From a virus, in IMG/VR virus record IMGVR_UViG_3300028800_001035, positions 1 to 64,000 of that record: a stretch of 64,000 bases of DNA, one strand, 5' to 3'. The translations under genes were made by a program, and so were the position numbers. Below the pieces are notes generated by a model. That model worked only from the letters and a program-made list of their open reading frames with translations. It made no database searches and was not told where the DNA came from. Positions within the stretch are counted from its first letter, which is position 1. Each line of letters starts with the position of its first letter. Below are positions 3,481-61,215 of the stretch, in pieces.

Positions 3481-3614
3481 GCTTCGACCCGAAACGCTTC
3501 GAGGACGACGCCTGGTCCGACCTCCGCGTCGGGCCGTTCATCGTCGTCTTGATGATCGCCGCCGGGATCGGCGCGCTCTTCGCCTGCTTCGTCTACGGGG
3601 TCGGCCCGCTGTGA
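3477..3614 (+). CDS. Small membrane protein (45 aa)
   Basis: GTGA overlaps at both ends; MSFDPKRFEDDAWSDLRVGPFIVVLMIAAGIGALFACFVYGVGPL. Confidence 0.55.
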   Translation: MSFDPKRFEDDAWSDLRVGPFIVVLMIAAGIGALFACFVYGVGPL

Positions 3615-5122
3615 GCACCGTTACCGTCAACGGCTCCCGGCTCGGGACCTCGCTTCAGTCGATGCTCGAGGCGGACGAGATCGTCCCCGGCGCGGAGCCG
3701 AGCTACGAGCTCTGCAAGATCATCTATTCCTTCCATCCGCTCGGCGCGAAGATGGTCGACTCGCCGATCAAGGCGGCCCAGTCGCAGTCCCGGGAGATCA
3801 CGGTCGGGAACGCCCCCGACGACGTCCCGGAAGCCTTCGTCAAGGAATGGCTCGCGATCGGCGCGGACGACCACATCCGGGCGCTCGGTTCGCTCGCGCG
3901 GATCTACGGTATCGCCTCCCTCGCCGTCTTGACCGTCGGGAAAGACCCCTCGACCCCGTTCGACCCGGCGAAGTCCGCGACCGAGAAGCTCGCCTTCAAC
4001 ACCTACGACCCGCTCAACACGGCGGGCTCCTTGGTCCTCGACCAGAACCCGAACTCGCCGGACTTTCAGAAGCACGCGAGTATCGCGGTCGCGGGGAAGC
4101 GGTACGCCCGGAACCGGAGCGTGACGCTCCTCAACGAGCGCCCCCTGTATATCGAATATACGTCCTCGGCCTTCGGCTTCGTCGGTCGGTCCGTCTATCA
4201 GCGCCCGCTCTACCTCCTCAAGTCGTTCGTCCAGACGATGATAACGGACGATATGGTCTCGAAGAAGGCCGGGCTGATTATCGCCTTCATCAAGGGCGCG
4301 GGCTCCGTCGTCGACAATATGATGATGAAGTTCACCGGGATGAAGCGGTCCCTCCTCAAGCAGGGGGTCGTCGACAACGTTCTCTCGATGGGCCCGGACG
4401 ACAAGGTCGAGTCGCTCAACCTTCAAAACCTCGACGGGGCGTTCGGGAACTCCCGCTCGAACATCATCAAGAACATCGCGACGTCGATCGACGCGCCCGC
4501 CGCCCTCCTCGAGAACGAGTCCCTGACCGAGGGCTTCGGCGAGGGGACCGAGGACGCGAAGATGATCGCCTCCTACGTCGACGGCTTCCGCAAGTGGCTC
4601 GCCCCCGCTTACGCCTTCTTCGACCCGATCGTCATGCGCCGGGCCTGGAACCCGGACTTCTTCAAGATCATGGCGAAGCGGTTCCCCGAGGAGTACGGCG
4701 GGCGCGACTACGAGGAGGTCTTCCTCGAGTGGCGCGATGCCTTCGCCGCGAACTGGCCGTCGCTCATCAAGGAGCCCGACTCCGAGCTCGTCAAGGTCGA
4801 GGACGTCAAGTTCAAGGCCCTGCTCGCAACCGCCGAGATACTCGCGCCGCAGCTCGACCCGGAGAACAAGGGCACCCTGATCGAGTGGGTCGCGGACAAC
4901 CTCAACGAGAACAAGCTCCTCTTCGCCCACCCGCTCGAGCTCGACATCGACCTCCTCCGCGCCTGGAAGCCCGAGGTCGCCGAGGGCGAGGACGGCGTCA
5001 AGGGGATCGGCGTCAACGAGAAGCTCGACGCCGCGCCGGGCGGGCACAACGCGATCAAATACTACGAGGACGCCGTCAAGCGCCTCCCGCTCCGCTTGAT
5101 CGACCGGAAGACCGGGACTTGA
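3611..5122 (+). CDS. Portal protein (DUF1073-like)
   Basis: 503 aa, position after TerL, ARIYG motif, FGFVGRSV and C-terminal NWPSL typical of this portal family. Confidence 0.85.
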   Translation: MSTVTVNGSRLGTSLQSMLEADEIVPGAEPSYELCKIIYSFHPLGAKMVDSPIKAAQSQSREITVGNAPDDVPEAFVKEWLAIGADDHIRALGSLARIYGIASLAVLTVGKDPSTPFDPAKSATEKLAFNTYDPLNTAGSLVLDQNPNSPDFQKHASIAVAGKRYARNRSVTLLNERPLYIEYTSSAFGFVGRSVYQRPLYLLKSFVQTMITDDMVSKKAGLIIAFIKGAGSVVDNMMMKFTGMKRSLLKQGVVDNVLSMGPDDKVESLNLQNLDGAFGNSRSNIIKNIATSIDAPAALLENESLTEGFGEGTEDAKMIASYVDGFRKWLAPAYAFFDPIVMRRAWNPDFFKIMAKRFPEEYGGRDYEEVFLEWRDAFAANWPSLIKEPDSELVKVEDVKFKALLATAEILAPQLDPENKGTLIEWVADNLNENKLLFAHPLELDIDLLRAWKPEVAEGEDGVKGIGVNEKLDAAPGGHNAIKYYEDAVKRLPLRLIDRKTGT

Positions 5123-5334
5123 GCGCGCCCCTCGGCGAGGACGTCCTCGCCTCGCTCAACGAGGCCGTCATGCACAAGACCGCGATGGACCGCGACCTCA
5201 ACAAGCTCCGCGACGCCGTCACGCGTCGCGACTGGGCCGCCGTCGAGGAGATCCGGTTCGGGCTCCACACCGCGATGGACGGCTACGTCGACGCCTACGC
5301 GACGGCGGGCCGCCGCCTGATGCACGCGCTATGA
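5119..5334 (+). CDS. Hypothetical protein
   Basis: TTGA overlap with the portal stop; real part of the 3847..5334 ORF (MSAPLGEDV...). Confidence 0.55.
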   Translation: MSAPLGEDVLASLNEAVMHKTAMDRDLNKLRDAVTRRDWAAVEEIRFGLHTAMDGYVDAYATAGRRLMHAL

Positions 5335-5723
5335 GCTGGCGTCGGCGCTGCAAGAAGAAAATCTCGAACGAGGAACTCGCCGTCAAGCTCGACGTTGTCC
5401 TTCTCGCTATAGCCTCCCTTTCGACGCAACTTTCAACCACGGAGAACAAGCTCATGTCGGCAGACGACGACCTCAAAACAGCCATCAGCGCCCTCGCGGA
5501 TTCCGTCGGGGCAATGCAGACCGCCGTCGCGGCGGAAGGCGCGGACATCGCGACCTTGACCGCGACGATCGCCAACGCCTCGAACGACCCGGTCGTCGTC
5601 GACGCCGTTGCCAAGATCAACGCGGCGGTCACGAATATCAATACGGCGACGGCCGCTGCGGTCGCCGCCGTGACGCCCGTTGCCGCCGCCGCGCCCCCTG
5701 TCCAGCCCGCCGTCGGTTCTTAA
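5331..5723 (+). CDS. Ala-rich coiled-coil protein
   Basis: ATGA overlap; may start at the internal ATG near 5454. Confidence 0.55.
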   Translation: MSWRRRCKKKISNEELAVKLDVVLLAIASLSTQLSTTENKLMSADDDLKTAISALADSVGAMQTAVAAEGADIATLTATIANASNDPVVVDAVAKINAAVTNINTATAAAVAAVTPVAAAAPPVQPAVGS

Positions 5724-5730
5724 CGCCTAA

Positions 5731-6585
5731 ATGCCCGGCTCGAGCAAGGAGGCCGAGTACCGCCGCGTCGTCGACGAAGCGGTAAACGACCTCGCCGAGC
5801 ACGGGTTCGATTCGGCCGAGCGCGTCGCGTACTGGGAGGAGCGGATTCGCCGCGCCGCCGAGGCCGCGATGGGCCCGTCCGCCAAGATGGAAGAAATGCT
5901 CCGCGAGCTCCTCGCCGCGACCTACAAGAAGATGGTCGAGCGCGGGAAGATCGCGGACTTCCACCCGGGCGTCGCCCGCTGGACGATCGAGCGGATCAAG
6001 CCCGAACTCCGCGCCGAGCTCGACCGCCGGATAATGGCGAGCGCGCAACTGATCCGCCTCAAGCGGAAGCAGCGGATCGAGGAAACCGTCGCCCGCTTCT
6101 CCGGTTGGGCGACAAGCCTCCCCAAGGGTGGAAGCGCCGAGCCCGACAAGGCCGCCGAGAAGGCGCGGGTCAAGAAGCCGATCGCCTCGCTCCCCTTCGA
6201 GGAGCGCCGGGTCTTAATCGACCAGGGGCACAAGCTAACCTCGTCGCTCAACTCCGTCGTCGCTACCGGCGGCGGCGCGATCGCCGGGGTCTGGCGCTCG
6301 CACTGGCGGCAGCCCGGCTACGACTACCGCGAGGACCACAAGGAGCGCGACGAGCTCGTCTACACGATCTCCGGCTCCTGGGCCCTCGAGAAGGGCCTAA
6401 TCCGCAAGTCGCCGAACGGGCACACCGACGAGATCACGCAACCGGCCGAAGAGCCGTTCTGCCGTTGCTTCTACCGCTACGTCTATACGCTCGGGCAGCT
6501 CGCCAAGCTCGCGCCGGACCTCTTGACCAAGAAGGGCGAGGCCGCCCTGGCCGAAGCCCGCGAGAAGATCGCGGCGATGGCATGA
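5731..6585 (+). CDS. Head morphogenesis protein (Mu gpF/SPP1 gp7-like)
   Basis: W-x-S...YDYREDH and PAEEPFCRC motifs, position after the portal. Confidence 0.8.
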   Translation: MPGSSKEAEYRRVVDEAVNDLAEHGFDSAERVAYWEERIRRAAEAAMGPSAKMEEMLRELLAATYKKMVERGKIADFHPGVARWTIERIKPELRAELDRRIMASAQLIRLKRKQRIEETVARFSGWATSLPKGGSAEPDKAAEKARVKKPIASLPFEERRVLIDQGHKLTSSLNSVVATGGGAIAGVWRSHWRQPGYDYREDHKERDELVYTISGSWALEKGLIRKSPNGHTDEITQPAEEPFCRCFYRYVYTLGQLAKLAPDLLTKKGEAALAEAREKIAAMA

Positions 6586-6929
6586 GCGGCGAGAGCGACT
6601 GGACGATCAGGACGCTCAAGAAGCACTTCGACCGCCGCTTCAAGGACCAAGACCGCGCCGTCTCGAAGGCGCTCGCGGCGACCGAGAAGCGATTCGACTC
6701 CGTCAACGAGTTTCGCCAGACCCTCGCCGACCAGCAGACGACGTTCGTCCGGAACGACGTCGCGAATACGCGGTTCACGGCGATCGAGGCGCAGATCGCG
6801 CGGATCACCGACCGCGAGACCGAGGTCAAGGCGCGCGGCGACGGGCGCAACGACGTCTGGGGTCGTCTCCTCGCCATCGTCGCGATCGCCATCTCGGCGG
6901 TCGCCTTGTTCTTCAAATTGAAGGGATAG
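6582..6929 (+). CDS. Hypothetical protein with C-terminal TM
   Basis: ATGA overlap (MSGESDW...), hydrophobic C-terminus. Confidence 0.6.
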   Translation: MSGESDWTIRTLKKHFDRRFKDQDRAVSKALAATEKRFDSVNEFRQTLADQQTTFVRNDVANTRFTAIEAQIARITDRETEVKARGDGRNDVWGRLLAIVAIAISAVALFFKLKG

Positions 6930-6933
6930 CCGC

Positions 6934-7098
6934 ATGAGCCCCCTGCTCCTCCTCCTGATCGTCCTCGTCCTCATCGGCGTCTTCTCCGCCCCGACTTGGG
7001 GGTACGCGCAGAATTGGGGCTACGGCCCGAGCGGCGGGATCGGGCTCATCGTCTTGATCCTCGTCATCCTCGTCCTCGTCGGAAGGATTCGCCTGTGA
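6934..7098 (+). CDS. DUF3309-like small membrane protein (54 aa)
   Basis: MSPLLLLLIVLVLIGVFSAPTWGYAQNWGYGPSGGIGLIVLILVILVLVGRIRL has the PTW...WGYGPSGG signature; absent from the ORF track. Confidence 0.7.
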   Translation: MSPLLLLLIVLVLIGVFSAPTWGYAQNWGYGPSGGIGLIVLILVILVLVGRIRL

Positions 7099-7427
7099 CC
7101 GACAATACCCGAGCCGCCGCCTTCGCGACGCCCGTCTTCCTCGTCCCGCCCGTCGGCGCGGCGGTCAAGAACGTCGCGACCGCGACGACGACCCTCGTCA
7201 AAACCGGCCCCGGGACTTTGCTCGGCGTCTCGATCAACACCGGCGGCGCGGGCTCCGACTTCAAGGTCTACGACGGGCTCGACGCGACCGGGACGCTCCT
7301 CGGAACGTTCTCGAGCGCGGCGCAGGGGGTGATAAACCTCCCCGGCGGCGGAATCAATTTCCTCGTCGGCCTTTGCGTCGTCACCGAGAACGGAACGCCA
7401 GCGAACATTACAATCAGCTACGTCTAG
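7095..7427 (+). CDS. Small beta-rich structural protein, paralog of 15404..15784
   Basis: GTG start (MTDNTRAAAF); shares G.L.G...NT.G......YDG....GT.LGTFS..AQ with 15404. Confidence 0.65.
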   Translation: MTDNTRAAAFATPVFLVPPVGAAVKNVATATTTLVKTGPGTLLGVSINTGGAGSDFKVYDGLDATGTLLGTFSSAAQGVINLPGGGINFLVGLCVVTENGTPANITISYV

Positions 7428-7440
7428 GAAGGGCAATCCA

Positions 7441-7644
7441 ATGGCAAAGCCGAGAGCTACCGCGTCGAAGCGCGCGAAGCCGTCCCCGAAGCGAAAACGC
7501 GGAGGCAAGCCTCGCGTCCCGAAGGAGATCGGGGCGGTCGTCCCCGGGCGCGATCAAATCGACGACGTTCCGATCGCGCCAGATCCCCCGCCTCGCGGAC
7601 GCTTCCGCCGCGCCTGGCGCTTCTTCTTCGGACCGAGGAGCTAG
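7441..7644 (+). CDS. Small basic protein
   Basis: K/R-rich N-terminus, AAGGGCAA leader. Confidence 0.55.
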   Translation: MAKPRATASKRAKPSPKRKRGGKPRVPKEIGAVVPGRDQIDDVPIAPDPPPRGRFRRAWRFFFGPRS

Positions 7645-7646
7645 AT

Positions 7647-7802
7647 ATGCATTTCGGACACGAGACTTCCGACGTCCTCGACTACCTCGTCTTCGGCCTC
7701 GTCGCCGGGTTCGGCTGGGCGATCTCGACCTGGGTCTGGGCCCAGATTACCGGGCGCTGGTTCGTTCGCACTTCGCCGCCTCCGCCCCCTCCGGTCCGCT
7801 GA
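7647..7802 (+). CDS. Small membrane protein (51 aa)
   Basis: GAGGAG RBS; MHFGHETSDVLDYLVFGLVAGFGWAISTWVWAQITGRW... Confidence 0.55.
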   Translation: MHFGHETSDVLDYLVFGLVAGFGWAISTWVWAQITGRWFVRTSPPPPPPVR

Positions 7803-46961: not shown

Positions 46962-47212
46962 CTTTGCCTCCTGATCTTGCCTTCAACCTTGCGCTCCCGC
47001 GCCGCCGCCTGCTTGTTGATCTCGGCGGTCGCCTCCCCGGCGATCCCGCCGAAGATAGCGCCCGCAACGAAGAGCGCAAACATCCGCTCCTTCTCGAGCT
47101 TTAGTATAAAATCCTTCGGACCAATCTCAGACGAGGTATATCCCGGCATCTCCGCCGCAAGGTAGTCCTCGAAGGCGTTCTCGAGCGATTCCTTGGAAAC
47201 AGAATATGTCAC
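46958..47212 (-). CDS. Hypothetical protein
   Basis: GTG start overlapping the polymerase stop. Confidence 0.55.
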   Translation of the reverse strand: MTYSVSKESLENAFEDYLAAEMPGYTSSEIGPKDFILKLEKERMFALFVAGAIFGGIAGEATAEINKQAAARERKVEGKIRRQR

Positions 47213-49176
47213 AGCGCCTCTCCCCACGTCCGCCCCGTCTTCGCCTCGACGAGGACCGGGACCTTGAGCTTGATCGCGTTCGGCATCACGTCCTCGTGAA
47301 GCTCGCGCCAAGCCTCGCGGCCCCGCGCCGTCCTCGGGATCGAGGAGTTGAGTTCGTCGTAGATCGTAAGTAGGTACGGCCCCAAGGCGTCCGATGCGGT
47401 CAATCCGCGATCGACGCCGTCGACCATCGCCTTCTTGATTATATCCGCGTTCGACGATTGCATCTTCTTGTTGAGCGCCGTGTAGGTGTGATAGCGGACG
47501 ATGTTCGGCCCGTATTCCTTCTCGGCCTCGGCCCGGCGGAGCGGCGTCGCGGGATTGTCCCAGTTCTTCTTCGCGGGCTCCCAGAGCAGGAACCGCTGGC
47601 GTCGCCGGAGGATCGAGCGGACGAAGCCGTGCTTCTCCGCGTACTTCTGCGCCGCGTCGAACGTATCCTTGTTGAACGGTAGCTTCGCGTCGTAGAGGTC
47701 GATGAAGGCCTGCGCCTCTTGCTTCGAGATGCCTAGCATCTCGCCGATCTTGTTCGCGCGGGCCCCATAGGTCTTGCCGAAGTTTAGGTTCTTGACATAT
47801 TTCCGCCGCTTCTTGTCCTCCGGCGGGATGCCAGCCATCTCGGCGCACATCTTGTGGTAGTCGGTCCTCGGGTCCTCGTTGTAGGTCCGCCGGACGGATT
47901 CCGCGCTCGGCCCGACCGCGAAGTGCGCGAGGAGCCGATACTCGATCTGCGAAAAGTCCGCCGAACCCCAATCCTCGCCGTCCTCCGGAAGGAAAAGCCC
48001 CCTGATCAGGGGGGCGACGTCGCGGAGATCTTCGTCGGCGCGGTCGTCGTCGCGGCTCGGGATGTTGGCGAGGTTCGGGTTCGCGCTCGCCGTCCGCGCG
48101 ATCGTACCGCCGCCGTCGTCCTTGAGTTGCTTCCACTCGCAATGTATCCGGCCCTTGACGTTCGAGCCGATGATCGTCCCGTCCATAAAGGTCGAGAGGA
48201 GGGTTTGAACCTTCCTCCCGTTGTAGATCGCGGAGCAGAGCGGGTCGCCGAGGCGGGCGGTTAGCCAACCCTTCGTAATCGAATCTTTCCCGGACTTCGG
48301 CGTCTTCGGGATTTGGTGCCCGTTCGCGCGAAGCGCGTCGGTGAAGCTCTCCGGGATTGAGAGCTCGGCCTTCGGGCTCGAGAGCCGCCGAACCTCGGCG
48401 AGGAGGCGGTCGCGGACGCGGACGAGGCCCTCGCGGGTCCGGATCGCGCCCGCGACGTCGACGCGAACGCCGCGCCGCGTCATATCGACCAAGGGGCGGA
48501 CGAGGCGGCGCTCGATCTCCCAGACCGGGAGGAGCTCCTCGGCGGCGAGCTTCTCGCGCTGGAGCTTGATGATCCGGAGCGGGCGGTCGACGTCGGCGAG
48601 CGCATAGGGCCCGGCGTGCGAGGAGTGGAGCTTCCAGACGTTCGACTTGATCTGCGAATCCGTCTTCCAGCCGCGCGCGTTGGCGGCCTTGCGGAGAAGC
48701 TCCTCGTCCTTGCCTTGCCCGAGGTAGTCGCGGGCGAGCGCGTCGAGGTTGAACTCGTAGCGCCATTCGTCGAGCAACGGCTCCGCGATTTGAACGTCGT
48801 CGAACGCCTCGACGAGCGGGAACGTCACGCCGTTCTCCGCGAGCCAGTCGAGGTCGTAGGCGAGCTTCGCGCCGACGACGGTCCCCCGGAAGGCGTTAAG
48901 CTCCTCGCGGGCCCAAGCCCAGACGATCCGCTCGTCGAGGTTGCCGCCGCCTTCGTGGCGAACGGGAAAGTACCAGCGGCGACCGTCTTCGGTCCCGACC
49001 GCGAGGCCGACGACGTAGTTGCCGGGGCGTCGGACGCCGGGGCCGAGCTCGGCGATTTGCGTATCCTTGGTCTCGACGTCGACGGCGAGATCGCCGAAGC
49101 GCGGCAAGCTCGGAAGCTCAGCGGGCGGATGCCAGGCCGGGACGTCCTCGAGCTCGACGGCGGAGAGGAGGTTCAA
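47209..49176 (-). CDS. Family A DNA polymerase (3'-5' exonuclease plus polymerase)
   Basis: VDVET exo I, YALAD exo III, NPNLANIP, ADFSQIEYR (A), RKYVKNLNFGKTYG (B), TIYDEL (C). Confidence 0.93.
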   Translation of the reverse strand: MNLLSAVELEDVPAWHPPAELPSLPRFGDLAVDVETKDTQIAELGPGVRRPGNYVVGLAVGTEDGRRWYFPVRHEGGGNLDERIVWAWAREELNAFRGTVVGAKLAYDLDWLAENGVTFPLVEAFDDVQIAEPLLDEWRYEFNLDALARDYLGQGKDEELLRKAANARGWKTDSQIKSNVWKLHSSHAGPYALADVDRPLRIIKLQREKLAAEELLPVWEIERRLVRPLVDMTRRGVRVDVAGAIRTREGLVRVRDRLLAEVRRLSSPKAELSIPESFTDALRANGHQIPKTPKSGKDSITKGWLTARLGDPLCSAIYNGRKVQTLLSTFMDGTIIGSNVKGRIHCEWKQLKDDGGGTIARTASANPNLANIPSRDDDRADEDLRDVAPLIRGLFLPEDGEDWGSADFSQIEYRLLAHFAVGPSAESVRRTYNEDPRTDYHKMCAEMAGIPPEDKKRRKYVKNLNFGKTYGARANKIGEMLGISKQEAQAFIDLYDAKLPFNKDTFDAAQKYAEKHGFVRSILRRRQRFLLWEPAKKNWDNPATPLRRAEAEKEYGPNIVRYHTYTALNKKMQSSNADIIKKAMVDGVDRGLTASDALGPYLLTIYDELNSSIPRTARGREAWRELHEDVMPNAIKLKVPVLVEAKTGRTWGEAL

Positions 49177-49922
49177 GCCGCGCCCTTCTCAATCAGCCAT
49201 CCGGCGAAGTCGCCATAGCGGAACCACTCGACCGGATTGCCGGGTAGGTCTTCCGGGTCAAGCGGGCGCTGGACGCCCGCGAGCGAGAGCTCTTTGTCGA
49301 TGATTTCCTTCGGCGAGACGCCCGTCGACAGCTTGCCCGCAAGGGTTAGGCGATTGAGGACCTGGCTCGCGTAGCCCGAAGCGAGCGCGGTCCGGTCGAC
49401 GACGACGAGGGCACCGCCGGGAGCGAGGTTGCACCAAAGATCGTGAAGCAACTTCCGCCGCTTCTTGGGCGGAACGAACATCACGAAGAGGAAGGCGACG
49501 ATCAGGTCGTTCTTGTCCTTGTCGGCCCACGGGACGTTTGTCGCGTCCTCGTTCCAGACGTTGACGTATGGATGAAACGACACGAAGTCCCTCGAGCCTC
49601 GCCGCTTGATTGCTTCGATCATCGCCTCCGACTTCTCGACGCCGTATATTCGGGCGGACCGCGCCTTGAGGACCGACTGCAGGGCGTAGGCGACGTTGCC
49701 GGTCGACGCGCCGAGGTCGATGACGCCTCCGCCTTCCGAGACGTAGTGCCGCGCGATATGGACGAGCCCCTTCGTAACGAAGTCGTACCACGGGAGCTGG
49801 CTCCGGACGTGCGCGTCGAAGTTCTCCGCGACGTCGGCGGTCTCGAACGACCACGCGCCCTCGGCGGGTCGCTCGGAGAGGCCGTCGCCGGAGAGCTTCT
49901 TGATCTTGGCCTTCTTGGTCAT
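49173..49922 (-). CDS. CmoA-like carboxy-SAM synthase / SAM-fold protein
   Basis: WSF..DVAENFDAHVRSQLPWY, IDLGASTG, MFV...R..LL...LAPGGALVVVD, WFRYGDFAG mirror CmoA. Confidence 0.75.
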   Translation of the reverse strand: MTKKAKIKKLSGDGLSERPAEGAWSFETADVAENFDAHVRSQLPWYDFVTKGLVHIARHYVSEGGGVIDLGASTGNVAYALQSVLKARSARIYGVEKSEAMIEAIKRRGSRDFVSFHPYVNVWNEDATNVPWADKDKNDLIVAFLFVMFVPPKKRRKLLHDLWCNLAPGGALVVVDRTALASGYASQVLNRLTLAGKLSTGVSPKEIIDKELSLAGVQRPLDPEDLPGNPVEWFRYGDFAGWLIEKGAA

Positions 49923-51016
49923 CTCTTCCTCGCCTCTCTCAAATCGCGGTACGGGATCAGGACCTTGTCGCGAACCGCCGAAGCGACGGCGGCCATCATA
50001 ACCGGCGGGACGGCGCGGCCCATCCGCTCCCATTTCTGCTGATAGGTCCCCGTCAACTTAAAGTCATCGGGGAAGGAGCAAAGCCGCCGGACCTCGGCGA
50101 TCGAGAACTTCCGCTTCTCGGTCGGATGGCATACCCCGGCGATAGATTCTCCGCCGTGGCTCGCGAGGATCGTCGGCGCGGGCTTCGACCGGCTCGCGCG
50201 GATCAAGGAGAAGAAGCGGTCGGACTGCTGCCCCTCCGCGCACTTGTCCCACTCCGCGCCGATCGCGTAGCGCGAGATGTCGATCCCGTCCATAACCCCG
50301 GGATGCTCCTCGGTCGCGCCGTCGGTCATCCACGGGCAGGCGTCGCCGACGTTGTAGCGATAGTCGAGCGGCTCCGGGTAGGCCGGATCGAGCCCGAGGT
50401 CCTCGCGGACGCCGACGAAGATAATCCGCATACGTTGCTGCGGGACGCCGAGCCATTGCGCGTCCAAGACGCGCGCCCCGACGCGGTAGCCGAGCGAGCG
50501 TAGGAGCTCGAGGACGTCGTTGAAGTACCCGACCGCAACCCCCCTGACCAATCCCGCGACGTTCTCGGCGACGAAGGTCTTCGGCTTGATCCCATCGACG
50601 AGCCGGGCGAACTCGAAGAAGAGGTCGTCGGTCCGCTGCTTGGAGTCGGAATATTTCCGGACGACGCCCCAACCCTCCGACCGCTTCCCGGCGGTCGAGA
50701 AGGAGGCGCAGGGGGGACTGCCGTCGAAGAGGTCGAGGCCGCCGGGCTTGACGCCGCACGCGGTCAAGACGTCGGCGGCTTGGACGGTTCGTATGTCCCG
50801 CCCGTCGACGACGGTATAGGGGCGCGCGTTCGCCTCGTAGGTCGCCCGCGCCTCCGGGATGAACTCGTTCGCGTAGCCGAGCTTGAAGCCCGCCATCCGG
50901 TAGCCGAGGCTCGAGCCCCCGCAACCGGAAAACGTACTCGCGGCGACGAAGCCGTTCGGCTCGAGCGCGTCGATCTCCGCCATCAGCGGGACGCGGTAGG
51001 GAGGCTTCTCGGTCAT
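49919..51016 (-). CDS. DNA cytosine-C5 methyltransferase-family enzyme (probable carboxymethyltransferase)
   Basis: FSGCGG (I), GSPPC (IV), ENV (VI), QQR.R (VIII), motif X GRAVPP. Confidence 0.9.
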   Translation of the reverse strand: MTEKPPYRVPLMAEIDALEPNGFVAASTFSGCGGSSLGYRMAGFKLGYANEFIPEARATYEANARPYTVVDGRDIRTVQAADVLTACGVKPGGLDLFDGSPPCASFSTAGKRSEGWGVVRKYSDSKQRTDDLFFEFARLVDGIKPKTFVAENVAGLVRGVAVGYFNDVLELLRSLGYRVGARVLDAQWLGVPQQRMRIIFVGVREDLGLDPAYPEPLDYRYNVGDACPWMTDGATEEHPGVMDGIDISRYAIGAEWDKCAEGQQSDRFFSLIRASRSKPAPTILASHGGESIAGVCHPTEKRKFSIAEVRRLCSFPDDFKLTGTYQQKWERMGRAVPPVMMAAVASAVRDKVLIPYRDLREARKR

Positions 51017-51249
51017 TCTTCGGAGACCTTCGTGTCGTCGGCGTTGGGCTTGGGATTGCCGCGCCAGCCGTAGCCACATTTTGCACAGCAGAACTCGACC
51101 TCGATCCCGGCGGAGAAGTCCGGCCACGCCTCGGGCGGGACGGCGCTCTCGGGATCGTAGCCCGCGAGGTCGGAGACCTCCTTGACGTCGAACAAGGCGG
51201 AAGCGCCGATGCCGACGGGGCCGAGGGAGGAGGAGCGGAGTTTTGCCAT
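51013..51249 (-). CDS. Small Zn-ribbon protein
   Basis: CAKCGYGW motif; translationally coupled to the MTase. Confidence 0.6.
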   Translation of the reverse strand: MAKLRSSSLGPVGIGASALFDVKEVSDLAGYDPESAVPPEAWPDFSAGIEVEFCCAKCGYGWRGNPKPNADDTKVSEE

Positions 51250-52052
51250 CAGTCTAATACTCCGGCGGCGATCTTGTTATAGGCGGCGATCGGCGACTTC
51301 GCGCCGGGGGCGTACTTCCGGAGGACGGCGTTGCCGACCGTCTCCGCTATCTTGGAATCGCCGAGCTGAAGGTTCGTATGCCGCGCGATCGAGAGGGGAT
51401 CGAGCTCGGGGAACTCTTTCCGAATCGCCTCCTTCTGGCGCGGCTTGTTGAGATCGTCCCAGGTCGAGCGGGCGAAGAGGTCGAAGACATCATTGCTGAA
51501 ATACGGCGAAAAGATCGAGACGTTGTTCGCGATCCCGATCGCGCGGAGCGTAGAAACTTGCGCCGCGTCCGGGTTCGCGAAGTAGTCCGCCCGGAATTTC
51601 TGAAACTTCGCTCTCGGATAGCGGTGATGGATCATCGCCTTCTTCGAGAGCGCAAAATGCCCGTCCGCCGCCGAGCCGACGACGAGCGTCGAAAGCCCGG
51701 CGCGCTTCAAGGTCGCAATCGTCGCGAGGAAGGGCCAGAGGCACTCGATCGCGGTCTTCCGCCGGGCCTCCCAGGTCTCGATAAGATAGCGGACGTCGGC
51801 GACGATCGTCTCCTCGGAAGTCGGTAGCGCGACCGGAAGGAACGGAAGGCCGAAGGCCTCCGCCAAGTGCCTAGCGGCTTTGAAGTCGCTCGACTCGTAC
51901 CGTTCGAGGGAAAAGGAAACAACCGTAACGGTCTTCCCCGCGTCGATCGCGGCAAGGACGAGGGCCGAGGAGTCGATTCCGCCGGAAGTCGCGACGGCGA
52001 TCTTCGCGTCCGGGATAGCCTTGATTTTGTCGGCGAGGATTTGGCGGAGCAT
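51249..52052 (-). CDS. Asparagine synthetase-like ATP pyrophosphatase (no glutaminase domain)
   Basis: PP-loop ATSGGIDSS, GSAADG, SPY..., QKEAIR; ATG at 52052. Confidence 0.8.
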   Translation of the reverse strand: MLRQILADKIKAIPDAKIAVATSGGIDSSALVLAAIDAGKTVTVVSFSLERYESSDFKAARHLAEAFGLPFLPVALPTSEETIVADVRYLIETWEARRKTAIECLWPFLATIATLKRAGLSTLVVGSAADGHFALSKKAMIHHRYPRAKFQKFRADYFANPDAAQVSTLRAIGIANNVSIFSPYFSNDVFDLFARSTWDDLNKPRQKEAIRKEFPELDPLSIARHTNLQLGDSKIAETVGNAVLRKYAPGAKSPIAAYNKIAAGVLD

Positions 52053-53035
52053 CAACTCCTCCCCGTCACGAGACCGCGAACGACCGGGCCGACGAAGGCG
52101 CTCGGCGCGGGATAGGCGGAGAGGTCCCAGGCGGTCGCGTTGGCTACGACGAGGTCGGCGAGGGCGACGTGCCACTTGCTCGCGTCGCGCCCTTCGGGGA
52201 CCGCGCTCTCGACCTCCTCCTCGACGGTAGCCGCGCCGTTGACGCCGACGATCTTGTCGGCACGTATCGCAATCTCGCCGTCGGCGAACCCGGCGACGCG
52301 TATAAATGCCCCTCTCCACTCCTCCGTAATTTCCGGAGGAGTTGGCGAGGTAGCAACCTTCTCGGCGAGGCGGTCGATCGTCCCGGGGACCTTGCCGTCG
52401 ACCAAGGACGACGCGAGCCAGGCTCCGTCCTCCCAGAAGAAGCTCGCGCGGTTCGCGGAGAGGGAGATTCGATTCGGCGGCGTCGCCGCGCCGAGGACGG
52501 CCATCAAGGCGCGCTTGGGGATCAGGGCGTCCGCGCCGAAGTCGGGGATCGATGCGTAGGCGTAGATCGCGGCCTGCGGCCCGCAGGCGCTCGCGCGCCC
52601 GTGCTGAATTATCAAGGCGTTCATCCACGCCGGTTGGGGGTCCTCGGAGACGAAGCCCGAGAGGACCTCGAAGCGCGAGAGCGTCGCCGCGTCGAGCGGG
52701 TGCGCGTCGGCGTCGCTCGGCGTCGCCGGGACGAAGGTCTCGACGAACTTCGCGAGACGGACTTCGCCCTTGAAGCGCCCGGCGCGGATTCGGAGGACAT
52801 CGCCTTCGACGTCGAACTCGGGATCGGAGGGCATCCTCGAGAGGACGGCCTCGAACTCGGACCCGGCGACGATCGCGTCGCCGAGCCACGGGAAGGGGGC
52901 GGAGGCGGTCATCGCGCGCGAGTTCGCGGCGATCCGCCCCCCTGACAAAACGAGCCAGGAGAACGGGCCCGAGTCCTCGCGGTCGAGGGCCGCCTTGACG
53001 CGCGCGATCGCCGCGAGGGCTCGGGAGAGTTCCAT
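52052..53035 (-). CDS. Sliding clamp (beta-clamp)-like protein
   Basis: 327 aa, repeated clamp-like architecture (LRIRAGRF, LIPKRAL, SSLVDGKVP). Confidence 0.6.
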   Translation of the reverse strand: MELSRALAAIARVKAALDREDSGPFSWLVLSGGRIAANSRAMTASAPFPWLGDAIVAGSEFEAVLSRMPSDPEFDVEGDVLRIRAGRFKGEVRLAKFVETFVPATPSDADAHPLDAATLSRFEVLSGFVSEDPQPAWMNALIIQHGRASACGPQAAIYAYASIPDFGADALIPKRALMAVLGAATPPNRISLSANRASFFWEDGAWLASSLVDGKVPGTIDRLAEKVATSPTPPEITEEWRGAFIRVAGFADGEIAIRADKIVGVNGAATVEEEVESAVPEGRDASKWHVALADLVVANATAWDLSAYPAPSAFVGPVVRGLVTGRS

Positions 53036-57276: not shown

Positions 57277-57521
57277 CTCCCGACCTCGATCTTCCCCGGC
57301 TGCCAATAGGTCCGCGCGCCTATTCCCGGGCGGTCGAGAAACTCGCCGCGCTTGCCGGGCTTGTAGAGGTCGACGAGGACGAGGAAGCCGAACGTCTCGT
57401 CCGGGATCACGCGCTTGACCCGCCCCGCCCGACCGAAGCAAGGGTCGTCGCGGATGATCACGTCGCGCCCGACGAGGCGTTCGGCGGCGGCGAAGGTCGC
57501 CGCAAAGTCGGAAGCCATCAC
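57273..57521 (-). CDS. Hypothetical protein
   Basis: Tiles the operon. Confidence 0.5.
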   Translation of the reverse strand: MMASDFAATFAAAERLVGRDVIIRDDPCFGRAGRVKRVIPDETFGFLVLVDLYKPGKRGEFLDRPGIGARTYWQPGKIEVGR

Positions 57522-58009
57522 GGCGCGTCCGCCTTCTCAAGCTCGCCGGGGGCGCTCGCGAAGAAGTCGGCGGGAGAGTCGTAGCGGAGGCTCGCGACGA
57601 TCTCGTCGAGCGCGACCTTGAGCGTCCCGCGCCGCTTCATCGCTCGACCGAACTGCCACTTCGAGTATCCCCGGTTCGTTCCGATAACGTAGATCGGCTT
57701 CCCGTGCGCGTCGGCGTAGCCCGCCTCGTAGAGCGCGCCCTTGAGGTCGTCGTCGCGCTCGGCGTAGACGAGGAAGACGTCGGCGCGACGTATGTCGGCC
57801 TTGTTATCCTCGAGCCAGTGCCGCGCGGGGCGGTTCATCTCGCTCGAAACGTCGGCGACGGCGGCCCAGCGGGAAGTCAGGTAGATGTTTGGGTAGGCGT
57901 CGCGGATCGCGAGGATCTTCTTCGCGTGGAGGAGCTTGCTCGCGGCATAGAGCGAGACGGACGCCCCCGGCGGTAGCGCCATACTCTGCGTCTTCATATC
58001 TCCGGTCAT
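57518..58009 (-). CDS. Nucleoside 2-deoxyribosyltransferase-like protein
   Basis: LYAAS, D..DIRRADVFLVY, GALYEAGYA...GKPIYVIG. Confidence 0.75.
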   Translation of the reverse strand: MTGDMKTQSMALPPGASVSLYAASKLLHAKKILAIRDAYPNIYLTSRWAAVADVSSEMNRPARHWLEDNKADIRRADVFLVYAERDDDLKGALYEAGYADAHGKPIYVIGTNRGYSKWQFGRAMKRRGTLKVALDEIVASLRYDSPADFFASAPGELEKADAP

Positions 58010-58854
58010 TGTTTTCCCTTTCCGAGGTTCTTGGTGAATAGTTCTTCGAGGCCCGCCGCGTAGGCGGCGATCAGGGTCGCTCCGGAGGAGAGCTTCCGCG
58101 ACTCCGCCATTCCGAAGAGATATTTGATCCCGACGGTCTTGATCGCGCGGATCACGCCGATCGGGTCGGCGAGCCACGCCGGGTTGGCGGCGAGGACGGA
58201 GGTCGTCGCCGTCACGATCGGGGCGCGGAGGAGGCCCGGGTTGCCGCCGCCGGTATCGACGACCGTCCGGAGCGCGAGTTCGAGGACCTCGGGCCCCCAG
58301 GACTTGAAGGCCTTCTCGAGCGCGCCGATCGCGAGGGTCTCGCCGGGGACCATCCCGGAGAGCGGCTTCGTCCCGCGCGGGATCGTCACGCCGACCTTCT
58401 CGAGGACGCGGCTCAAGCGGACGGCGACGGAATCCCCGGCCATGAGCCGCGCGTGCCAGATTTGCTGCTCGGCGATCGCGGTAACGGCCCCGTTGATCAC
58501 GGAGAAGGCCTTCGCCTCGTCCGCCCGGTCCCCCCTGATAACGAGGCACGGGACCTTCTCGATCCCGCCGTGGGTCCGCGCTGCGATCGCCCGGTGCTGC
58601 CCGTCGATTACGGCGTAGAGGCCGCCCTCGCGCGCGCAGACGACGAGCGGGGAGAAGAGGCTCCAGGAGAAGTTTTCGATCACCTGCCGGATGTTCTTCT
58701 CGCCCTTCGGCCCGATCGGTCGCTGATACTTCGGGTCGATCCGGAGGTCGCGGAGGTCGAGCCACGCGAGCTCGCCGACGGCGTCGGTCGGAGCCGGGTT
58801 CGGGAAGGGCGGCGCGAAGGCGACCGCGTCGAGGGAGAGAAGTTCGTCGTTCAT
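58006..58854 (-). CDS. ParB/Srx-like domain protein (DUF6551-like)
   Basis: LRIDPKYQR, VIDGQHRA.AA, EAKAF..IN. Confidence 0.75.
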   Translation of the reverse strand: MNDELLSLDAVAFAPPFPNPAPTDAVGELAWLDLRDLRIDPKYQRPIGPKGEKNIRQVIENFSWSLFSPLVVCAREGGLYAVIDGQHRAIAARTHGGIEKVPCLVIRGDRADEAKAFSVINGAVTAIAEQQIWHARLMAGDSVAVRLSRVLEKVGVTIPRGTKPLSGMVPGETLAIGALEKAFKSWGPEVLELALRTVVDTGGGNPGLLRAPIVTATTSVLAANPAWLADPIGVIRAIKTVGIKYLFGMAESRKLSSGATLIAAYAAGLEELFTKNLGKGKQ

Positions 58855-59207
58855 ATCGCCTCCGCGTTCGGGTCCGCCATATAGTAGCCGCGTCCCCAGG
58901 ACGTCCCGATGTCGATCCCGAGCGGCTTGATTTTCTTCCGGAGCTTGCAGACGTATACGTCGACTATCTTGATCTCCGGGACCTCTTCCTCGGTCCTCCG
59001 GAGTTGGTATAGGTGCTCGAGGATCGCCTCCTTCGGGACGATCCGCCCGGCCCTCTCGAAGATGAACTCGAAGACCGCCATCTCCTGCGGGGTCAACGAC
59101 CCGCAGCGCTTGCCGCCGTAGCGTATCTCCGCGCGGTCGCGGTCGAGGATTATTCCGCCGAACTCGGGAAGCGCCGAACCGCAATGCTCGCAAACTCTCC
59201 CGCTCAT
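58851..59207 (-). CDS. CtrA-like OmpR winged-helix protein without receiver domain
   Basis: KEAILEHLY...PEIKIVDVYVCKLRKK...IGTSWGRGY; N-terminal CxxC. Confidence 0.8.
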   Translation of the reverse strand: MSGRVCEHCGSALPEFGGIILDRDRAEIRYGGKRCGSLTPQEMAVFEFIFERAGRIVPKEAILEHLYQLRRTEEEVPEIKIVDVYVCKLRKKIKPLGIDIGTSWGRGYYMADPNAEAI

Positions 59208-59626
59208 CCGTAGACCTCCCCTATCATCGACGCGACGGCGCGAGCGTGCGGGCCCGTCGCCTCGAACTGCTCGACGAGGATCGCGACGACCTTGCTCCGG
59301 CGCTCGAGCTCGCCGGGCGCGAGCTCCGGGCGCGTCGCGCGAACGGCGGAATAGCCGAGCCCGAAAACGGTCGTCGTCAGGACGACGCCGTAGTCCGCGA
59401 GCTTGAAACGGAGCCGCGAGGCGTAGACGCGGGAGGCGTTGAGCGGGTCCTCTTCGACCTTGCCGACGTCGCCGACGAGGTCCCGATGCCGCACCGGGCG
59501 ACCCTCGGCGCGAAGTAGCGTCGCGACGAAGCGCGCCTCGGCGCGGGTCAGGCTCATTTCGACCGGGGCGTGAAACCGCCTCGCGACCTCGTCGAACGAC
59601 CATCCTCCCCACTCGATCATCATCAC
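59204..59626 (-). CDS. Second OmpR-type winged-helix protein
   Basis: LTRAE....LL...GRPV....L, VYASRLRFKL, TVFGLGY. Confidence 0.7.
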   Translation of the reverse strand: MMMIEWGGWSFDEVARRFHAPVEMSLTRAEARFVATLLRAEGRPVRHRDLVGDVGKVEEDPLNASRVYASRLRFKLADYGVVLTTTVFGLGYSAVRATRPELAPGELERRSKVVAILVEQFEATGPHARAVASMIGEVYG

Positions 59627-61215
59627 ATCTCCACCGCCGCCGCGCCGCGCGGGACGGCGTGCTCTTCGGTCTGCTCGGGGAAGGCGGGAACCGACCAATA
59701 GTCGACCCGCTTGCCCTTGATGTCGGATGCGTGACTATCGACGCCGCGCTTGCGGAGCCAGCGCCAGGCGTCGCGGTCGTTGATCCCAGCGAAGCGGTGG
59801 GCGGTCAAGTAGGCGAAGAAGTCGGTCGAGCGGAAGTAGACGCGCTTCTTCGCGTGATCCGTAAAGGCCTTCCCGAGGATGATTTCTTCGAGGAGCCGCG
59901 CGCGGGCCCGGCCTGTGCAGAAGGCGGCGAGGTGCGCGAAGAACTGCCCCTCCCGCGTCCCGTCGTCGGGAACGACGATCGTCGTCGCGCTTGCGAGGAG
60001 GTCGCGGACGATCTTCTCCCAGGCGGACGGCTTGACGGGGTTGGGCCATTTGTTGAGGCGCTCGATCACGAAGGTCCGGAACTTGCGCTGATCCGTCAAC
60101 GCGTCGGTCGTCACCTCGAGGAGCTCGCCGTCGACCTCGATCACCCAGACGGGCGGTTCGGTCAGGACTTTGGCGAGGGTCCCGAACTTGACGCCGGGGT
60201 CGAGCGGTTCGCCGCCAAGGCCGAAGTCGACCTTGGCGCAGGCGGTCTTGTTGCAGACGCCGGAGATCGGGCCGTCTTTGCATTTGTAGAAGTAGTTCTT
60301 CTTCTTGACCGACTTGACGACCGACCGTATATCCGCGCTCGGAACGCCGAGGCCGAGCCGGTCATTGTAGTCGATCAGCGCGGCCTCGACGTCCTCCTCG
60401 CCGCGCTTCTTGAGGTATATCCCGATGTCGAAGAGGGAGTTGTTTCCCCAATCGCCCCAGCCGTTCGTCGCCCAGAGCGTCCGGAGGCACGGCGGAGCTC
60501 CGGGGAAGAGGTCCTCGCCCGGCGGCGGAAGATCGGGCGGCGTCGCGACCTCGATCTTCTCGAGCGTCTCCGGCGAGATCGCGCGGCGGCGAACCTCCTC
60601 TATGAACTCGTCGACCGAGAGCGCCTCGTCGTTCGGCCCGAGGGCGTAGCGGAGGCTCCGGTTGCCTCCGGCATACGGGATGTTGATCCAGGACCCGTCC
60701 GACTCCGGCGTAAGGACGTCCTGCTTCGGAAATATTTCGACGCCGGGATGGCCCAAGGCGATAGCCCAGGCGATCAGCTTCTCGCGGACGAGCGTCGCCC
60801 GCGCGGGCGAAGAGAGGAAGAGGTAGGCGTGCGCGCCGGAGGACTTGGTCCGGCAAACGATCAAAGGAAGGCCGAGCTCGGCGACCTTGGCTCTGAACTT
60901 CTCGATGGTTAGCGGATAGACGTCGACGTCGATTGCGCCGAAGACGGCGGTTCCGTCCTCGCGGATCGGGACGATCCCGAGCCCGACCGGGCCCGTAACG
61001 GGCTCGTCGGTCTTCTCGTCCTTGACGGTCGCGATCACCCCGGAGAGGTGATCTTCCCATTCCTTGAGGCCGACGGGGCGCTTCGACGTCCAGGGACGGC
61101 CGACGATCTTGCCGGTCTTCGGATCGGCGATCGCGCCGGTCGGAACGACGTAGCGCCCGCTCGATCGCGCGAGCCCCGCAAATATCCGAGAAAATTCTTC
61201 CGCCCTTGATGACAA
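59623..61215 (-). CDS. AEP-superfamily primase
   Basis: GAIDVD, TKSSGAHAYLF, EIFPKQ, WINIPY, PPC plus Cys cluster. Confidence 0.8.
   Translation of the reverse strand: MSSRAEEFSRIFAGLARSSGRYVVPTGAIADPKTGKIVGRPWTSKRPVGLKEWEDHLSGVIATVKDEKTDEPVTGPVGLGIVPIREDGTAVFGAIDVDVYPLTIEKFRAKVAELGLPLIVCRTKSSGAHAYLFLSSPARATLVREKLIAWAIALGHPGVEIFPKQDVLTPESDGSWINIPYAGGNRSLRYALGPNDEALSVDEFIEEVRRRAISPETLEKIEVATPPDLPPPGEDLFPGAPPCLRTLWATNGWGDWGNNSLFDIGIYLKKRGEEDVEAALIDYNDRLGLGVPSADIRSVVKSVKKKNYFYKCKDGPISGVCNKTACAKVDFGLGGEPLDPGVKFGTLAKVLTEPPVWVIEVDGELLEVTTDALTDQRKFRTFVIERLNKWPNPVKPSAWEKIVRDLLASATTIVVPDDGTREGQFFAHLAAFCTGRARARLLEEIILGKAFTDHAKKRVYFRSTDFFAYLTAHRFAGINDRDAWRWLRKRGVDSHASDIKGKRVDYWSVPAFPEQTEEHAVPRGAAAVEM

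Follow-up and report, generated by a model that had tools for sequence, protein, structure and literature searches.

A predicted CmoA/CmoX/CmoY-type cytosine hypermodification operon with a free-standing ParB-tail protein in an uncultivated phage

Four coupled genes in the replication module of an uncultivated phage very likely encode a post-replicative cytosine hypermodification pathway of the CmoA/CmoX/CmoY type, judging by the sequence of the window (the whole 64,000-nucleotide stretch of DNA analysed here, from IMG/VR record IMGVR_UViG_3300028800_001035). Such a pathway has been experimentally demonstrated for Synechococcus phage S-B43, and its homologs already number in the thousands (Yang et al., Nat Commun 2025, PMC12783734). 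A preliminary description of this DNA had proposed that a carboxy-SAM (Cx-SAM) synthase, a C5 carboxymethyltransferase and an amide ligase act in turn on DNA, a proposal now supported by homology to S-B43, by the SPPC and Arg signatures of the transferase and by wide co-occurrence of the genes. The similar cyanophage gene set that it mentioned does exist, being the CmoA, CmoX and CmoY of S-B43 reported by Yang et al. (2025; PMC12783734). The phage is thereby one more member of a known enzyme system, with one small extra protein.

Gene order and the S-B43 precedent

The four overlapping genes occupy 49173-52052 on the minus strand and are confirmed as real by the list of open reading frames and by re-reading of their junctions. 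In order of transcription, they encode a CmoY-like ATP-dependent amide ligase (51249-52052, 267 aa), a 78-aa free-standing 'ParB-tail' protein that is predicted to dock onto CmoX (51013-51249), a CmoX-type DNA cytosine-C5 carboxymethyltransferase (49919-51016, 365 aa) and a CmoA-like carboxy-SAM synthase homolog (49173-49922, 249 aa). The junctions are a TGATG overlap between the ligase and the 78-aa ORF, and ATGA overlaps between that ORF and the transferase and between the transferase and the CmoA-like gene. Both flanking genes lie on the same strand and outside the pathway. Upstream is a sliding-clamp-like processivity factor (52052-53035; phrog_947, E 5.5e-22, annotated as 'DNA polymerase processivity factor'), whose TGA has one base in common with the ATG of the ligase. 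Downstream is a family A DNA polymerase (PolA; 47209-49176; PF00476, E 2.6e-49; NF004397, E 2.2e-64), which starts with TTG at 49176 in a TTGA overlap with the stop of the CmoA-like gene. Translational coupling of four genes between a clamp-like gene and a DNA polymerase, as described earlier, is thus borne out by the start/stop overlaps and by both flanks.

Sequence comparison reveals S-B43 homologs of all three enzymes, alignable along their whole length, and the two systems have much in common: the same three enzyme families in one coupled cluster, a CmoX with SPPC and a motif-X Arg, a ligase of about 270 aa that lacks a glutaminase domain, and a CmoA with Glu in the column of E. coli Arg199. 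They differ in sequence, with identities of 37% for CmoX (against SpCmoX, E 4e-75), 32% for CmoY (against SpCmoY, residues 1-231, E 3e-41; 267 versus 271 aa) and 23% for CmoA (against SpCmoA, E 1e-15). They further differ in gene order, which is Y-tail-X-A here and A-Y-X in S-B43, in the type of target-recognition region, in the C-terminus of the ligase, and in the 78-aa tail protein, which is found in 0/80 loci for the S-B43 lineage, whose CmoX also lacks a P-x-x-P-x-P loop that is conserved here. S-B43 is a cyanomyovirus, whereas the window derives from an uncultivated virus of 65% GC that has a genome of 72.5 kb and encodes a tail sheath. Every enzymatic step proposed below is carried over from S-B43, at 23-37% identity.

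Co-occurrence of the genes in other genomes, a check set beforehand, was found among 80 viral loci selected on the ligase alone: CmoX is present in 78/80 and CmoA in 73/80, and the transferases carry GR[AS]VPP in 73/78 and GSPPC in 75/78. Among 28 metagenome loci selected on the tail alone, CmoA lies downstream of all Arg-type transferases (8/8) and of none of the Asn/Leu-type ones (0/4).

The transferase and its cofactor

The methyltransferase matches PF00145 (E 3.1e-50) over model positions 4-321 of 324 and is the only match to this family in the 72.5-kb genome. Its best sequence match in the PDB is SpCmoX (8YF3, E 6.8e-64), which leads the second, HaeIII (2.6e-18), by 45 orders of magnitude. 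The C5-methyltransferase motifs I, IV, VI and VIII are present as FSGCGG, GSPPC, ENV and QQRMR (QxRxR), and the residues that contact Cx-SAM (F of motif I, NEF and D) are found as well. Re-reading of the motifs places SPPC at 50708-50719, with Cys103 catalytic by position, and motif X reads ERMGRAVPP. The unusual GRAVPP noted earlier is therefore real, with Arg334 encoded by CGC at 50015-50017, and it aligns to GRMVPP of SpCmoX, making Arg334 the equivalent of R350. Yang et al. (PMC12783734) searched for CmoX by SPPC and an Arg at the R350 position; the window enzyme has both, and the genomic association with CmoA that also marks CmoX is seen in the adjoining CmoA-like gene with its ATGA overlap.

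By these signatures, the enzyme would use carboxy-SAM to form 5-carboxymethylcytosine (5cxmC) in double-stranded DNA, and this is the step with the strongest support. Cys103 would attack cytosine at C6 in double-stranded phage DNA, and the carboxymethyl group of carboxy-SAM, its carboxylate held by Arg334, would pass to C5, so that 5-carboxymethylcytosine would be formed within some short site. The target-recognition region differs in type from that of SpCmoX and aligns poorly with it (66 gap positions), and the GC site of SpCmoX is therefore not transferable. An engineered parallel is M.MpeI N374K, which uses carboxy-SAM to give 5cxmC at CG (Wang and Kohli, cited in PMC12783734). Both enzymes have a basic residue in place of the motif-X Asn; the window enzyme differs in being natural, in having Arg rather than Lys, and in being encoded by a phage with its own cofactor synthase.

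Could this instead be an ordinary 5-methylcytosine methyltransferase beside unrelated housekeeping-like genes, with no hypermodification at all? Close relatives in the clade do carry Asn in motif X (GNCVPP in L091, a locus that has neither CmoA nor CmoY, and GNSVPP in L179, L180 and L204), so the scaffold can be a plain methylase. The window copy, however, carries Arg. Wild-type SpCmoX is reported to accept only Cx-SAM, and its R350N mutant neither cofactor (PMC12783734). Together with the translational coupling of the four genes and their co-occurrence in 73-78 of 80 loci, this makes a plain methylase hardly credible.

The cofactor would come from the CmoA-like enzyme, which by homology is expected to make Cx-SAM from host SAM and host prephenate. 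Neither a chorismate mutase nor a SAM synthetase was found in the phage genome, and both substrates must therefore be supplied by the host. All three PDB matches of the protein at E<=1e-3 are CmoA/YecO (4GEK, 1e-12), it belongs to the phage family phrog_4752 (E 1.3e-45), and its best NCBIfam models are two CmoA equivalogs, TIGR00740 (63.9 bits, under the cut-off of 193.3) and NF011995 (56.5 bits, under the cut-off of 285). Residues that contact SAM in E. coli CmoA (Y39, D62, G64, S66, D89 and F137; numbering from Byrne 2013, PMC3663124) are kept as Y46, D69, G71, S73, E96 and F149. The protein thus shares fold and SAM contacts with the E. coli CmoA/CmoB pathway for tRNA cmo5U (4GEK, 4IWN; Byrne 2013, PMC3663124), and differs in its 24% identity to E. 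coli CmoA, in the change of Arg199 to Glu and in the absence of CmoB here. The proposed carboxymethyl acceptor is DNA cytosine, as against tRNA ho5U in E. coli.

The change at Arg199 deserves attention, as this residue is described as the key carboxylate-binding residue, forming a salt bridge to the carboxylate of the cofactor (Byrne 2013, PMC3663124). The preliminary description had aligned E. coli QKRS to DKEL by eye and had questioned the cofactor chemistry. Its alignment stands, since HMMER and MAFFT both place Glu211 (49290-49292) in the Arg199 column; the doubt about chemistry does not. SpCmoA carries the same Glu (E188), as do the proteins of Mcat8, L004 and L010, and SpCmoA is the faster Cx-SAM synthase, with a kcat of 2.33 s-1 versus 0.23 s-1 for E. 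coli CmoA (PMC12783734). Since an active enzyme has this Glu, the substitution is no argument against carboxy-SAM synthesis, and Arg199 is not a defining feature of the phage branch. That the enzyme makes or binds some other SAM derivative, and that the group placed on DNA is not carboxymethyl, would fit the twice-found Glu alignment and the CmoA equivalog cut-offs that are not reached. It is nonetheless quite improbable given the activity of SpCmoA, the carboxylate-binding Arg retained in the partner transferase and the company that CmoA keeps with Arg-type transferases in the tail-selected loci.

The ligase and the amine

The earlier identification of the ligase as an Asn-synthetase-like PP-loop ATPase that lacks a glutaminase domain holds on every count. 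The protein matches Pfam Asn_synthase (E 5.8e-9) and phrog_26038 (E 5e-43), has the PP-loop SGGIDS at 51969-51986 (residues 23-28), and matches positions 246-369 of the 517 of TIGR01536, that is, the synthetase half only; neither profile matches nor fold comparison find a glutaminase domain in its 267 aa. Its AlphaFold2 model (pLDDT 93.1) has the fold of the AsnB synthetase domain, with AsnB 1CT9 as the best Foldseek match (TMq 0.74-0.76), followed by beta-lactam synthetase and carbapenam synthetase (structural matches 1CT9, 1MC1 and 1Q15; TMq 0.64-0.76 overall, E about 1e-8). The chemistry presumed common to these synthetases is formation of an acyl-adenylate and then of an amide. The ligase differs from them in being half their size, in lacking the N-terminal glutaminase-like domain, in its 15-20% identity and in its proposed acid substrate, a base in DNA. 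It would adenylate the carboxylate of 5-carboxymethylcytosine and then join an amine to it.

The amine need not be that of S-B43. At positions invariant in the ligase's own clade, SpCmoY has Tyr for H132 and Ser-Asn for D232-S233, and the C-terminus, with the clade motif SP-x-x-AYN, is also unlike that of SpCmoY, so that a different amine may be used. The existence of ligase clusters whose active-site residues are distinct and whose amines are unknown is moreover reported (PMC12783734). With only 32% identity to SpCmoY, it is a serious possibility, if somewhat short of an even chance, that the same pathway adds a non-glycine amine (an amino acid, a polyamine or free ammonia) to 5-carboxymethylcytosine and that the mature base is not 5gcxmC. 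Against this, the conserved polar and basic positions are mostly common to SpCmoY (K99, E103, D130, R154, the SKKA motif and Q229/G231), and the largest ligase cluster and several smaller ones retain the glycine-carboxylate-binding residues, according to the same report (PMC12783734). Ammonia derived from glutamine is unlikely because the ligase lacks a glutaminase domain.

A free-standing ParB tail

The 78-aa ORF carries the motifs LFD, GYDP, PPxxWPDF and CCAKCGYGWRG. A Pfam search gave no match, and it has no ParB N-terminal domain. Exhaustive HMMER searching yielded 44 matches, either stand-alone or at the C-termini of ParB-like proteins; the former are 60-81 aa long (best 69% identity) and the latter about 170-220 aa. 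With BLASTP, its alignment to the ParB-like protein of locus L004 is confined to residues 121-168 of the latter, a protein that itself passes PF02195 (27.4 bits; cut-off 26.3). On this homology, the ORF corresponds to the C-terminal tail of the ParB-like partners of this methyltransferase clade, encoded as a protein in its own right. Such ParB-like (PF02195) proteins lie beside or are fused to phage DNA methyltransferases, and their last ~50 residues are homologous to the ORF, which differs in lacking the ParB/Srx-fold N-terminal domain; in L075, a full-length ParB-like gene takes the same operon slot. The tail occurs in 71/80 ligase-selected loci, in every case no more than 25 aa from the C-terminal end of a ParB-like ORF. 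No other copy was found in the phage genome, where a ParB_N domain is weakly matched elsewhere (E 9.2e-4). Yang et al. count 1660 ParBc sequences in CmoX contigs and give their function as unknown (PMC12783734); literature searches for the tail itself or its docking to CmoX returned only that paper, and no description of either was found.

The earlier label of a Zn-ribbon peptide is not upheld. A zinc ribbon has two Cys/His knuckles with four zinc ligands, while only one CCxxC knuckle (CCAKCGYGW, 51064-51090) occurs in the ORF, with neither a further Cys pair or knuckle nor a Pfam match. Its C55 and C58 are the sole invariant Cys among 17 stand-alone homologs.

Modelling suggests that the protein probably clips onto CmoX. 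The complex of tail and CmoX scored a median of 0.88 (0.88, 0.89 and 0.86), as against 0.01 for the best of three controls, and the 0.88 mark is reached by 58/80 solved complexes and 2/110 mismatched pairs, rough counts as our own alignments were used. At least 56% of contacts agree between runs, with a partner pLDDT of at least 53. As docked in one model run on our own alignments, the tail strand PPEAWPDFS would add antiparallel to CmoX strand 179-185, and the tail would pack on the conserved P-x-x-P-x-P loop (residues 211-216). The 78-aa protein would then be a small CmoX subunit or adaptor. The tail-less lineages seen are only the S-B43-like phages and L084, and the association of tail and loop may reflect plain shared ancestry.

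A more doubtful alternative, though one with some claim, is that the protein is not a CmoX subunit and instead acts with the ligase, binds DNA, or merely dimerises through a shared zinc site built from two CxxC knuckles, its place in the operon being left over from a ParB gene that has been lost. The tail-bearing gene adjoins the ligase, not the transferase, in 57/80 ligase-selected loci, and the tail has only two invariant Cys. Intermolecular zinc hooks likewise have two invariant Cys. SpCmoX, further, is reported to be active as a monomer without a partner (PMC12783734). These observations are to be set against the distribution of the tail, which is found with the transferase but without the ligase in Mcat8 and L090/L091, while the ligase is found without the tail in the S-B43 lineage and in L084; in tail-selected loci, the transferase comes immediately next in 22/28. 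A fresh relic is contradicted by the free-standing homologs, which retain the motif down to 27% identity. In favour of docking onto CmoX, the modelled contacts coincide with the conserved residues of the tail.

A divergent phage operon that probably encodes a published cytosine modification pathway

According to Yang et al. (Nat Commun 2025, PMC12783734), Synechococcus phage S-B43 encodes a CmoA that produces carboxy-SAM (Cx-SAM), a C5-methyltransferase homolog, CmoX, that forms 5-carboxymethylcytosine at GC sites, and a short asparagine-synthetase homolog, CmoY, that joins glycine using ATP. This is the cyanophage precedent mentioned in the preliminary description, whose proposed set of a CmoA, a C5 carboxymethyltransferase and an amide ligase is borne out by homology to these enzymes and was already in print. 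The transferase of the window is 37% identical to that of S-B43 (SpCmoX; E 4e-75; locus L001 of our set), the ligase 32% identical to SpCmoY over its full length (E 3e-41), and the CmoA-like protein 23% identical to SpCmoA (E 1e-15). Judged by this homology, it is right to read the operon as a CmoA/CmoX/CmoY cytosine modification pathway of the published kind. As a member of that kind it would be divergent and high in GC, its target-recognition region being of a different type and its ligase belonging to a subclade whose amine may differ. This makes it a candidate for supplying both a carboxymethyltransferase that acts at a new site and a new amide adduct.

The layout is as first described: four overlapping minus-strand genes, each start overlapping the stop of the preceding gene when the junctions are re-read, encode the ligase (51249-52052, 267 aa), a small ORF (51013-51249, 78 aa), the C5-methyltransferase (49919-51016, 365 aa) and the CmoA-like protein (49173-49922, 249 aa). 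On one side lies a clamp-like processivity factor (52052-53035, minus strand; phrog_947, E 5.5e-22), on the other a DNA polymerase of family A (47209-49176, minus strand). The window covers bases 1-64000 of an IMG/VR virus record of 72,463 bases, which is linear without end repeats and has a CheckV completeness of 100%. A large terminase and a tail sheath are among the encoded proteins, and the GC content of the window is about 65%. A blastn search with the 5.8-kb region returned as its sole match the methyltransferase of Streptomyces phage TurkishDelight (69%), and with the polymerase as tblastn query identities did not exceed 39%, the matching phages having many different hosts.

The top NCBIfam model for the polymerase is the aminoadenine-type DpoZ, with a score of 258.7 bits where the cut-off is 500; a Z-genome is unsupported because a PurZ-like adenylosuccinate synthetase (PF00709) is absent from the phage genome. 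Elsewhere in the window, a winged-helix Trans_reg_C protein without receiver domain (58851-59612, minus strand; E 5.9e-13) lies beside an archaeo-eukaryotic-type primase (59623-61215, minus strand; PF22548 E 4.7e-8, phrog_21866 E 9.9e-76).

When the methyltransferase was compared with all PDB sequences, the top match was 8YF3 (E 6.8e-64), followed by the HaeIII methylase (2.6e-18). It is the single PF00145 match in the whole genome, and it keeps SPPC, ENV and QxRxR as well as the residues that Yang et al. list as touching Cx-SAM (motif-I Phe, NEF and Asp). As reported in the same source, Arg350 of SpCmoX stands in for the motif-X Asn and touches the cofactor carboxylate in structure 8YF3. Motif X of the window transferase does read GRAVPP, as had been noted, and aligns to GRMVPP of SpCmoX, so that the Arg is present. 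Between columns ~240 and 390 of the transferase alignment, at least three types of target-recognition insert occur within this clade: a short one, one ending in YHW-x-EPR and one ending in HP-x-E-x-RKF, which is the type of the window. Such differing inserts suggest that several target sites are served within one transferase clade. By computation, CpG would take in 47% of the phage cytosines and GpC 31%, the latter being the eligible fraction if the target were GC as in S-B43.

The ligase carries the PP-loop SGGIDS, and its matches to AsnB models are confined to the synthetase half, in line with the earlier view of an Asn-synthetase-like ATPase that lacks a glutaminase domain. The structure comparison proposed at that stage was run and agrees: an AlphaFold2 model from 28 sequences (pLDDT 93.1, pTM 0.91) had as its best Foldseek matches E. 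coli AsnB (TMq 0.74-0.76), beta-lactam synthetase, carbapenam synthetase and human ASNS. The family comprises 155 matches at E<=1e-3 among 3,524 candidates, the closest non-self relative (P0002, on a 71.5-kb contig) being 72% identical. While SpCmoY has most conserved polar positions in common with the window ligase, it differs at positions that vary little or not at all in the window ligase's clade (H132, D232-S233 and, at the C-terminus, SP-x-x-AYN), and the amine may therefore be one other than glycine. A bacterial chromosome, the Bacillus sp. M6-12 contig, holds a ligase-like ORF (4959-5792) that is 37% identical to the window ligase, and the 5 kb to each side of this ORF contain no CmoX or CmoA match; members of the ligase family thus also occur outside carboxymethylcytosine operons.

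The preliminary description had cautioned that the catalytic Arg of CmoA appeared to be replaced and that the cofactor chemistry could differ. The replacement stands, since Glu211 aligned to E. coli Arg199 twice, by HMMER against 4GEK and in a MAFFT alignment that included E. coli K-12 CmoA. Byrne et al. (2013, PMC3663124) describe Arg199 as forming a salt bridge with the carboxylate of the cofactor. The suggested difference in chemistry does not follow: the same column holds Glu in active SpCmoA (E188), and in Moraxella phage Mcat8, L004 and L010, Ala in TurkishDelight and L082, and Arg in L032, L062 and L084. Because SpCmoA, with its Glu, is reported to synthesise Cx-SAM faster than the E. 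coli enzyme (PMC12783734), the change is best seen as a trait of a phage branch. The SAM-contact residues are kept in the alignment, and the only three PDB sequence matches are all CmoA structures. The protein scores far under both NCBIfam CmoA cut-offs and so falls outside the bacterial CmoA equivalog. Neither a chorismate mutase nor a SAM synthetase C-domain was found in the phage genome; prephenate and SAM must therefore come from the host.

Distribution of the gene set

Yang et al. (PMC12783734) count, in phage contigs including IMG/VR v4, 5,615 candidate CmoX, 4,257 CmoA, 2,251 ligases and 1,660 ParBc. Single-protein scans of viral contigs returned nothing with the CmoA query and two loci only with the ligase query, and an alignment-based ligase scan of IMG/VR gave 275 relatives. 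In the best 80 loci, the genes do co-occur in other genomes, a point on which the pathway proposal had been staked: CmoX matches were present in 78, CmoA matches in 73 and ParB-like matches in 71, the commonest order being ParB-CmoY-CmoX-CmoA (n=57). Loci that lack a partner match are mostly cut by contig ends. The motif GSPPC occurs in 75 and GR[AS]VPP in 73 of the 78 transferases. Since many IMG/VR loci are near-duplicates (L050/L059 repeat L004/L005, L177 equals L178 and L201 equals L203), such counts do not represent independent events. A search of 185,579 prokaryote species, with one genome each, yielded just two loci, in Bacillus sp. M6-12 and Lederbergia, from which it follows that the system resides mainly in non-integrated phages.

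A small ORF resembling the tail of ParB-like proteins

The 78-aa ORF had been labelled a Zn-ribbon peptide, a label that does not hold up well: only one CCxxC knuckle is present, and Pfam gives no match. The 44 relatives recovered by exhaustive HMMER searching include stand-alone proteins of 60-81 aa, up to 69% identical, as well as the extreme C-termini of proteins of ~170-220 aa. In 71 of the 80 viral ligase loci, the motif PPxDFxEFDxxIxTEYxCPxCGYxWSG lies at most 25 residues from the C-terminus of a ParB-like ORF; eight of the other nine have no upstream sequence, and one (L084) is truly tail-less. Several tail-bearing ORFs pass the PF02195 cut-off or come near it (L004, 27.4 bits against 26.3; Mcat8, E 1.2e-6; L075, E 3.3e-4). 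The match of the 78-aa ORF to the L004 ParB-like protein spans residues 121-168 of the latter, and in L075 a full ParB-like gene fills the same slot between ligase and transferase. By these sequence comparisons, the 78-aa ORF is a detached ParB tail.

No second tail or ParB copy was found in the phage genome beyond a weak ParB_N match at 58495-58662. This match (E 9.2e-4, 15.5 bits) falls in the N-terminal part of a 415-aa ORF (57518-58765, minus strand) that has neither the tail motif nor a PHROG match, and whose residues 309-366 weakly match nucleoside 2-deoxyribosyltransferase (E 6e-5; 23.6 bits, with the cut-off at 28.8).

Predicted docking of the tail on the transferase

Four observations on the distribution of loci favour the transferase over the ligase as the partner of the tail. 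Moraxella phage Mcat8 (with a tail variant ending in CGYEF) and L090/L091 have tail and transferase without ligase. Conversely, the tail is absent though the ligase is present in S-B43, in all 80 S-B43-like loci, which form one lineage, and in L084. When metagenomes were scanned with the tail as the sole seed, 28 loci were obtained, and in 22 of them a CmoX-family transferase begins directly where the tail ends; in the remaining six, the sequence downstream is shorter than 200 nt (four loci), about 400 nt long (one) or 3.4 kb long without a match (L191). Further, among the tail-selected transferases with a readable motif X, CmoA lies downstream in 8/8 with the Arg and in 0/4 with Asn or Leu (GNSVPP in three, GLSVPP in one), two of these four having at most 150 nt downstream. 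The tail therefore follows the transferase scaffold whatever the cofactor, and the Arg tracks CmoA.

The transferases of L090/L091, L179, L180, L204 and L189 are close relatives of the window transferase (46-51% identity), with GNCVPP, GNSVPP or GLSVPP as motif X, a ParB-tail gene directly upstream and no CmoA or ligase match nearby; in L091 (GNCVPP) the two genes span 3599-4153 and 4020-5294. From these relatives it follows that the same scaffold also exists as an apparently ordinary methylase.

A complex of CmoX with the tail protein was modelled from a 17-row tail alignment (A3) and a 24-row transferase alignment (A5), made up of the window CmoX and 23 of 60 non-identical full-length CmoX sequences. 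The model scored 0.88, 0.89 and 0.86, the best of three controls reaching 0.01, on a mark that 58/80 solved complexes and 2/110 mismatched pairs attain and that is a rough guide here, own alignments having been used. The runs share at least 56% of contacts, with a partner pLDDT of at least 53. The model is support for binding of the tail to CmoX, not proof of it. We know of no solved complex of a ParB tail with a methyltransferase, and so it seems unlikely that the score reflects an already known structure.

In the model, tail residues 42-46 run antiparallel to CmoX 179-185 (GYRVGARVLDA), which we take to lie at the edge of the catalytic sheet in the C5-methyltransferase fold, and tail residues 38-42 and 60-65 pack against CmoX 211-220. 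The loop P211-x-x-P214-x-P216 is invariant in A5; its strict pattern occurs in 70/77 tail-bearing loci, close variants in most of the other seven, and it is absent from both tail-less lineages (four loci with partial CmoX, L012, L042, L077 and L088, were omitted).

Yang et al. (PMC12783734) offer no explanation for the role of the ParB-like proteins in ~1660 CmoX contigs. Those beside CmoX end in a small conserved tail, a predicted transferase binder, and this phage encodes the tail alone. We tentatively propose, as an idea that could well prove wrong, that the tail (PPxDFxEFDxxIxTEYCCPxCGYxWSG) is a portable docking peptide, freed from ParB here, that would clamp one clade of phage C5-transferases, methyl- and carboxymethyl-transferring alike, through an added strand at the edge of the catalytic domain. 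If so, the transferase would depend on the peptide itself and not on ParB, for instance with the peptide serving as a small subunit that stabilises or activates the enzyme. Such docking would also explain the recurrent ParB domains beside or fused to phage DNA methyltransferases and would provide a minimal peptide-enzyme pair.

A second small free-standing tail ORF (3785-4093) occurs in L095/L096, directly upstream of a CmoX-family ORF (3945-6323) whose frame of ~790 aa contains GRAVPP and is followed by a long ligase-like ORF of ~570 aa (6089-7801).
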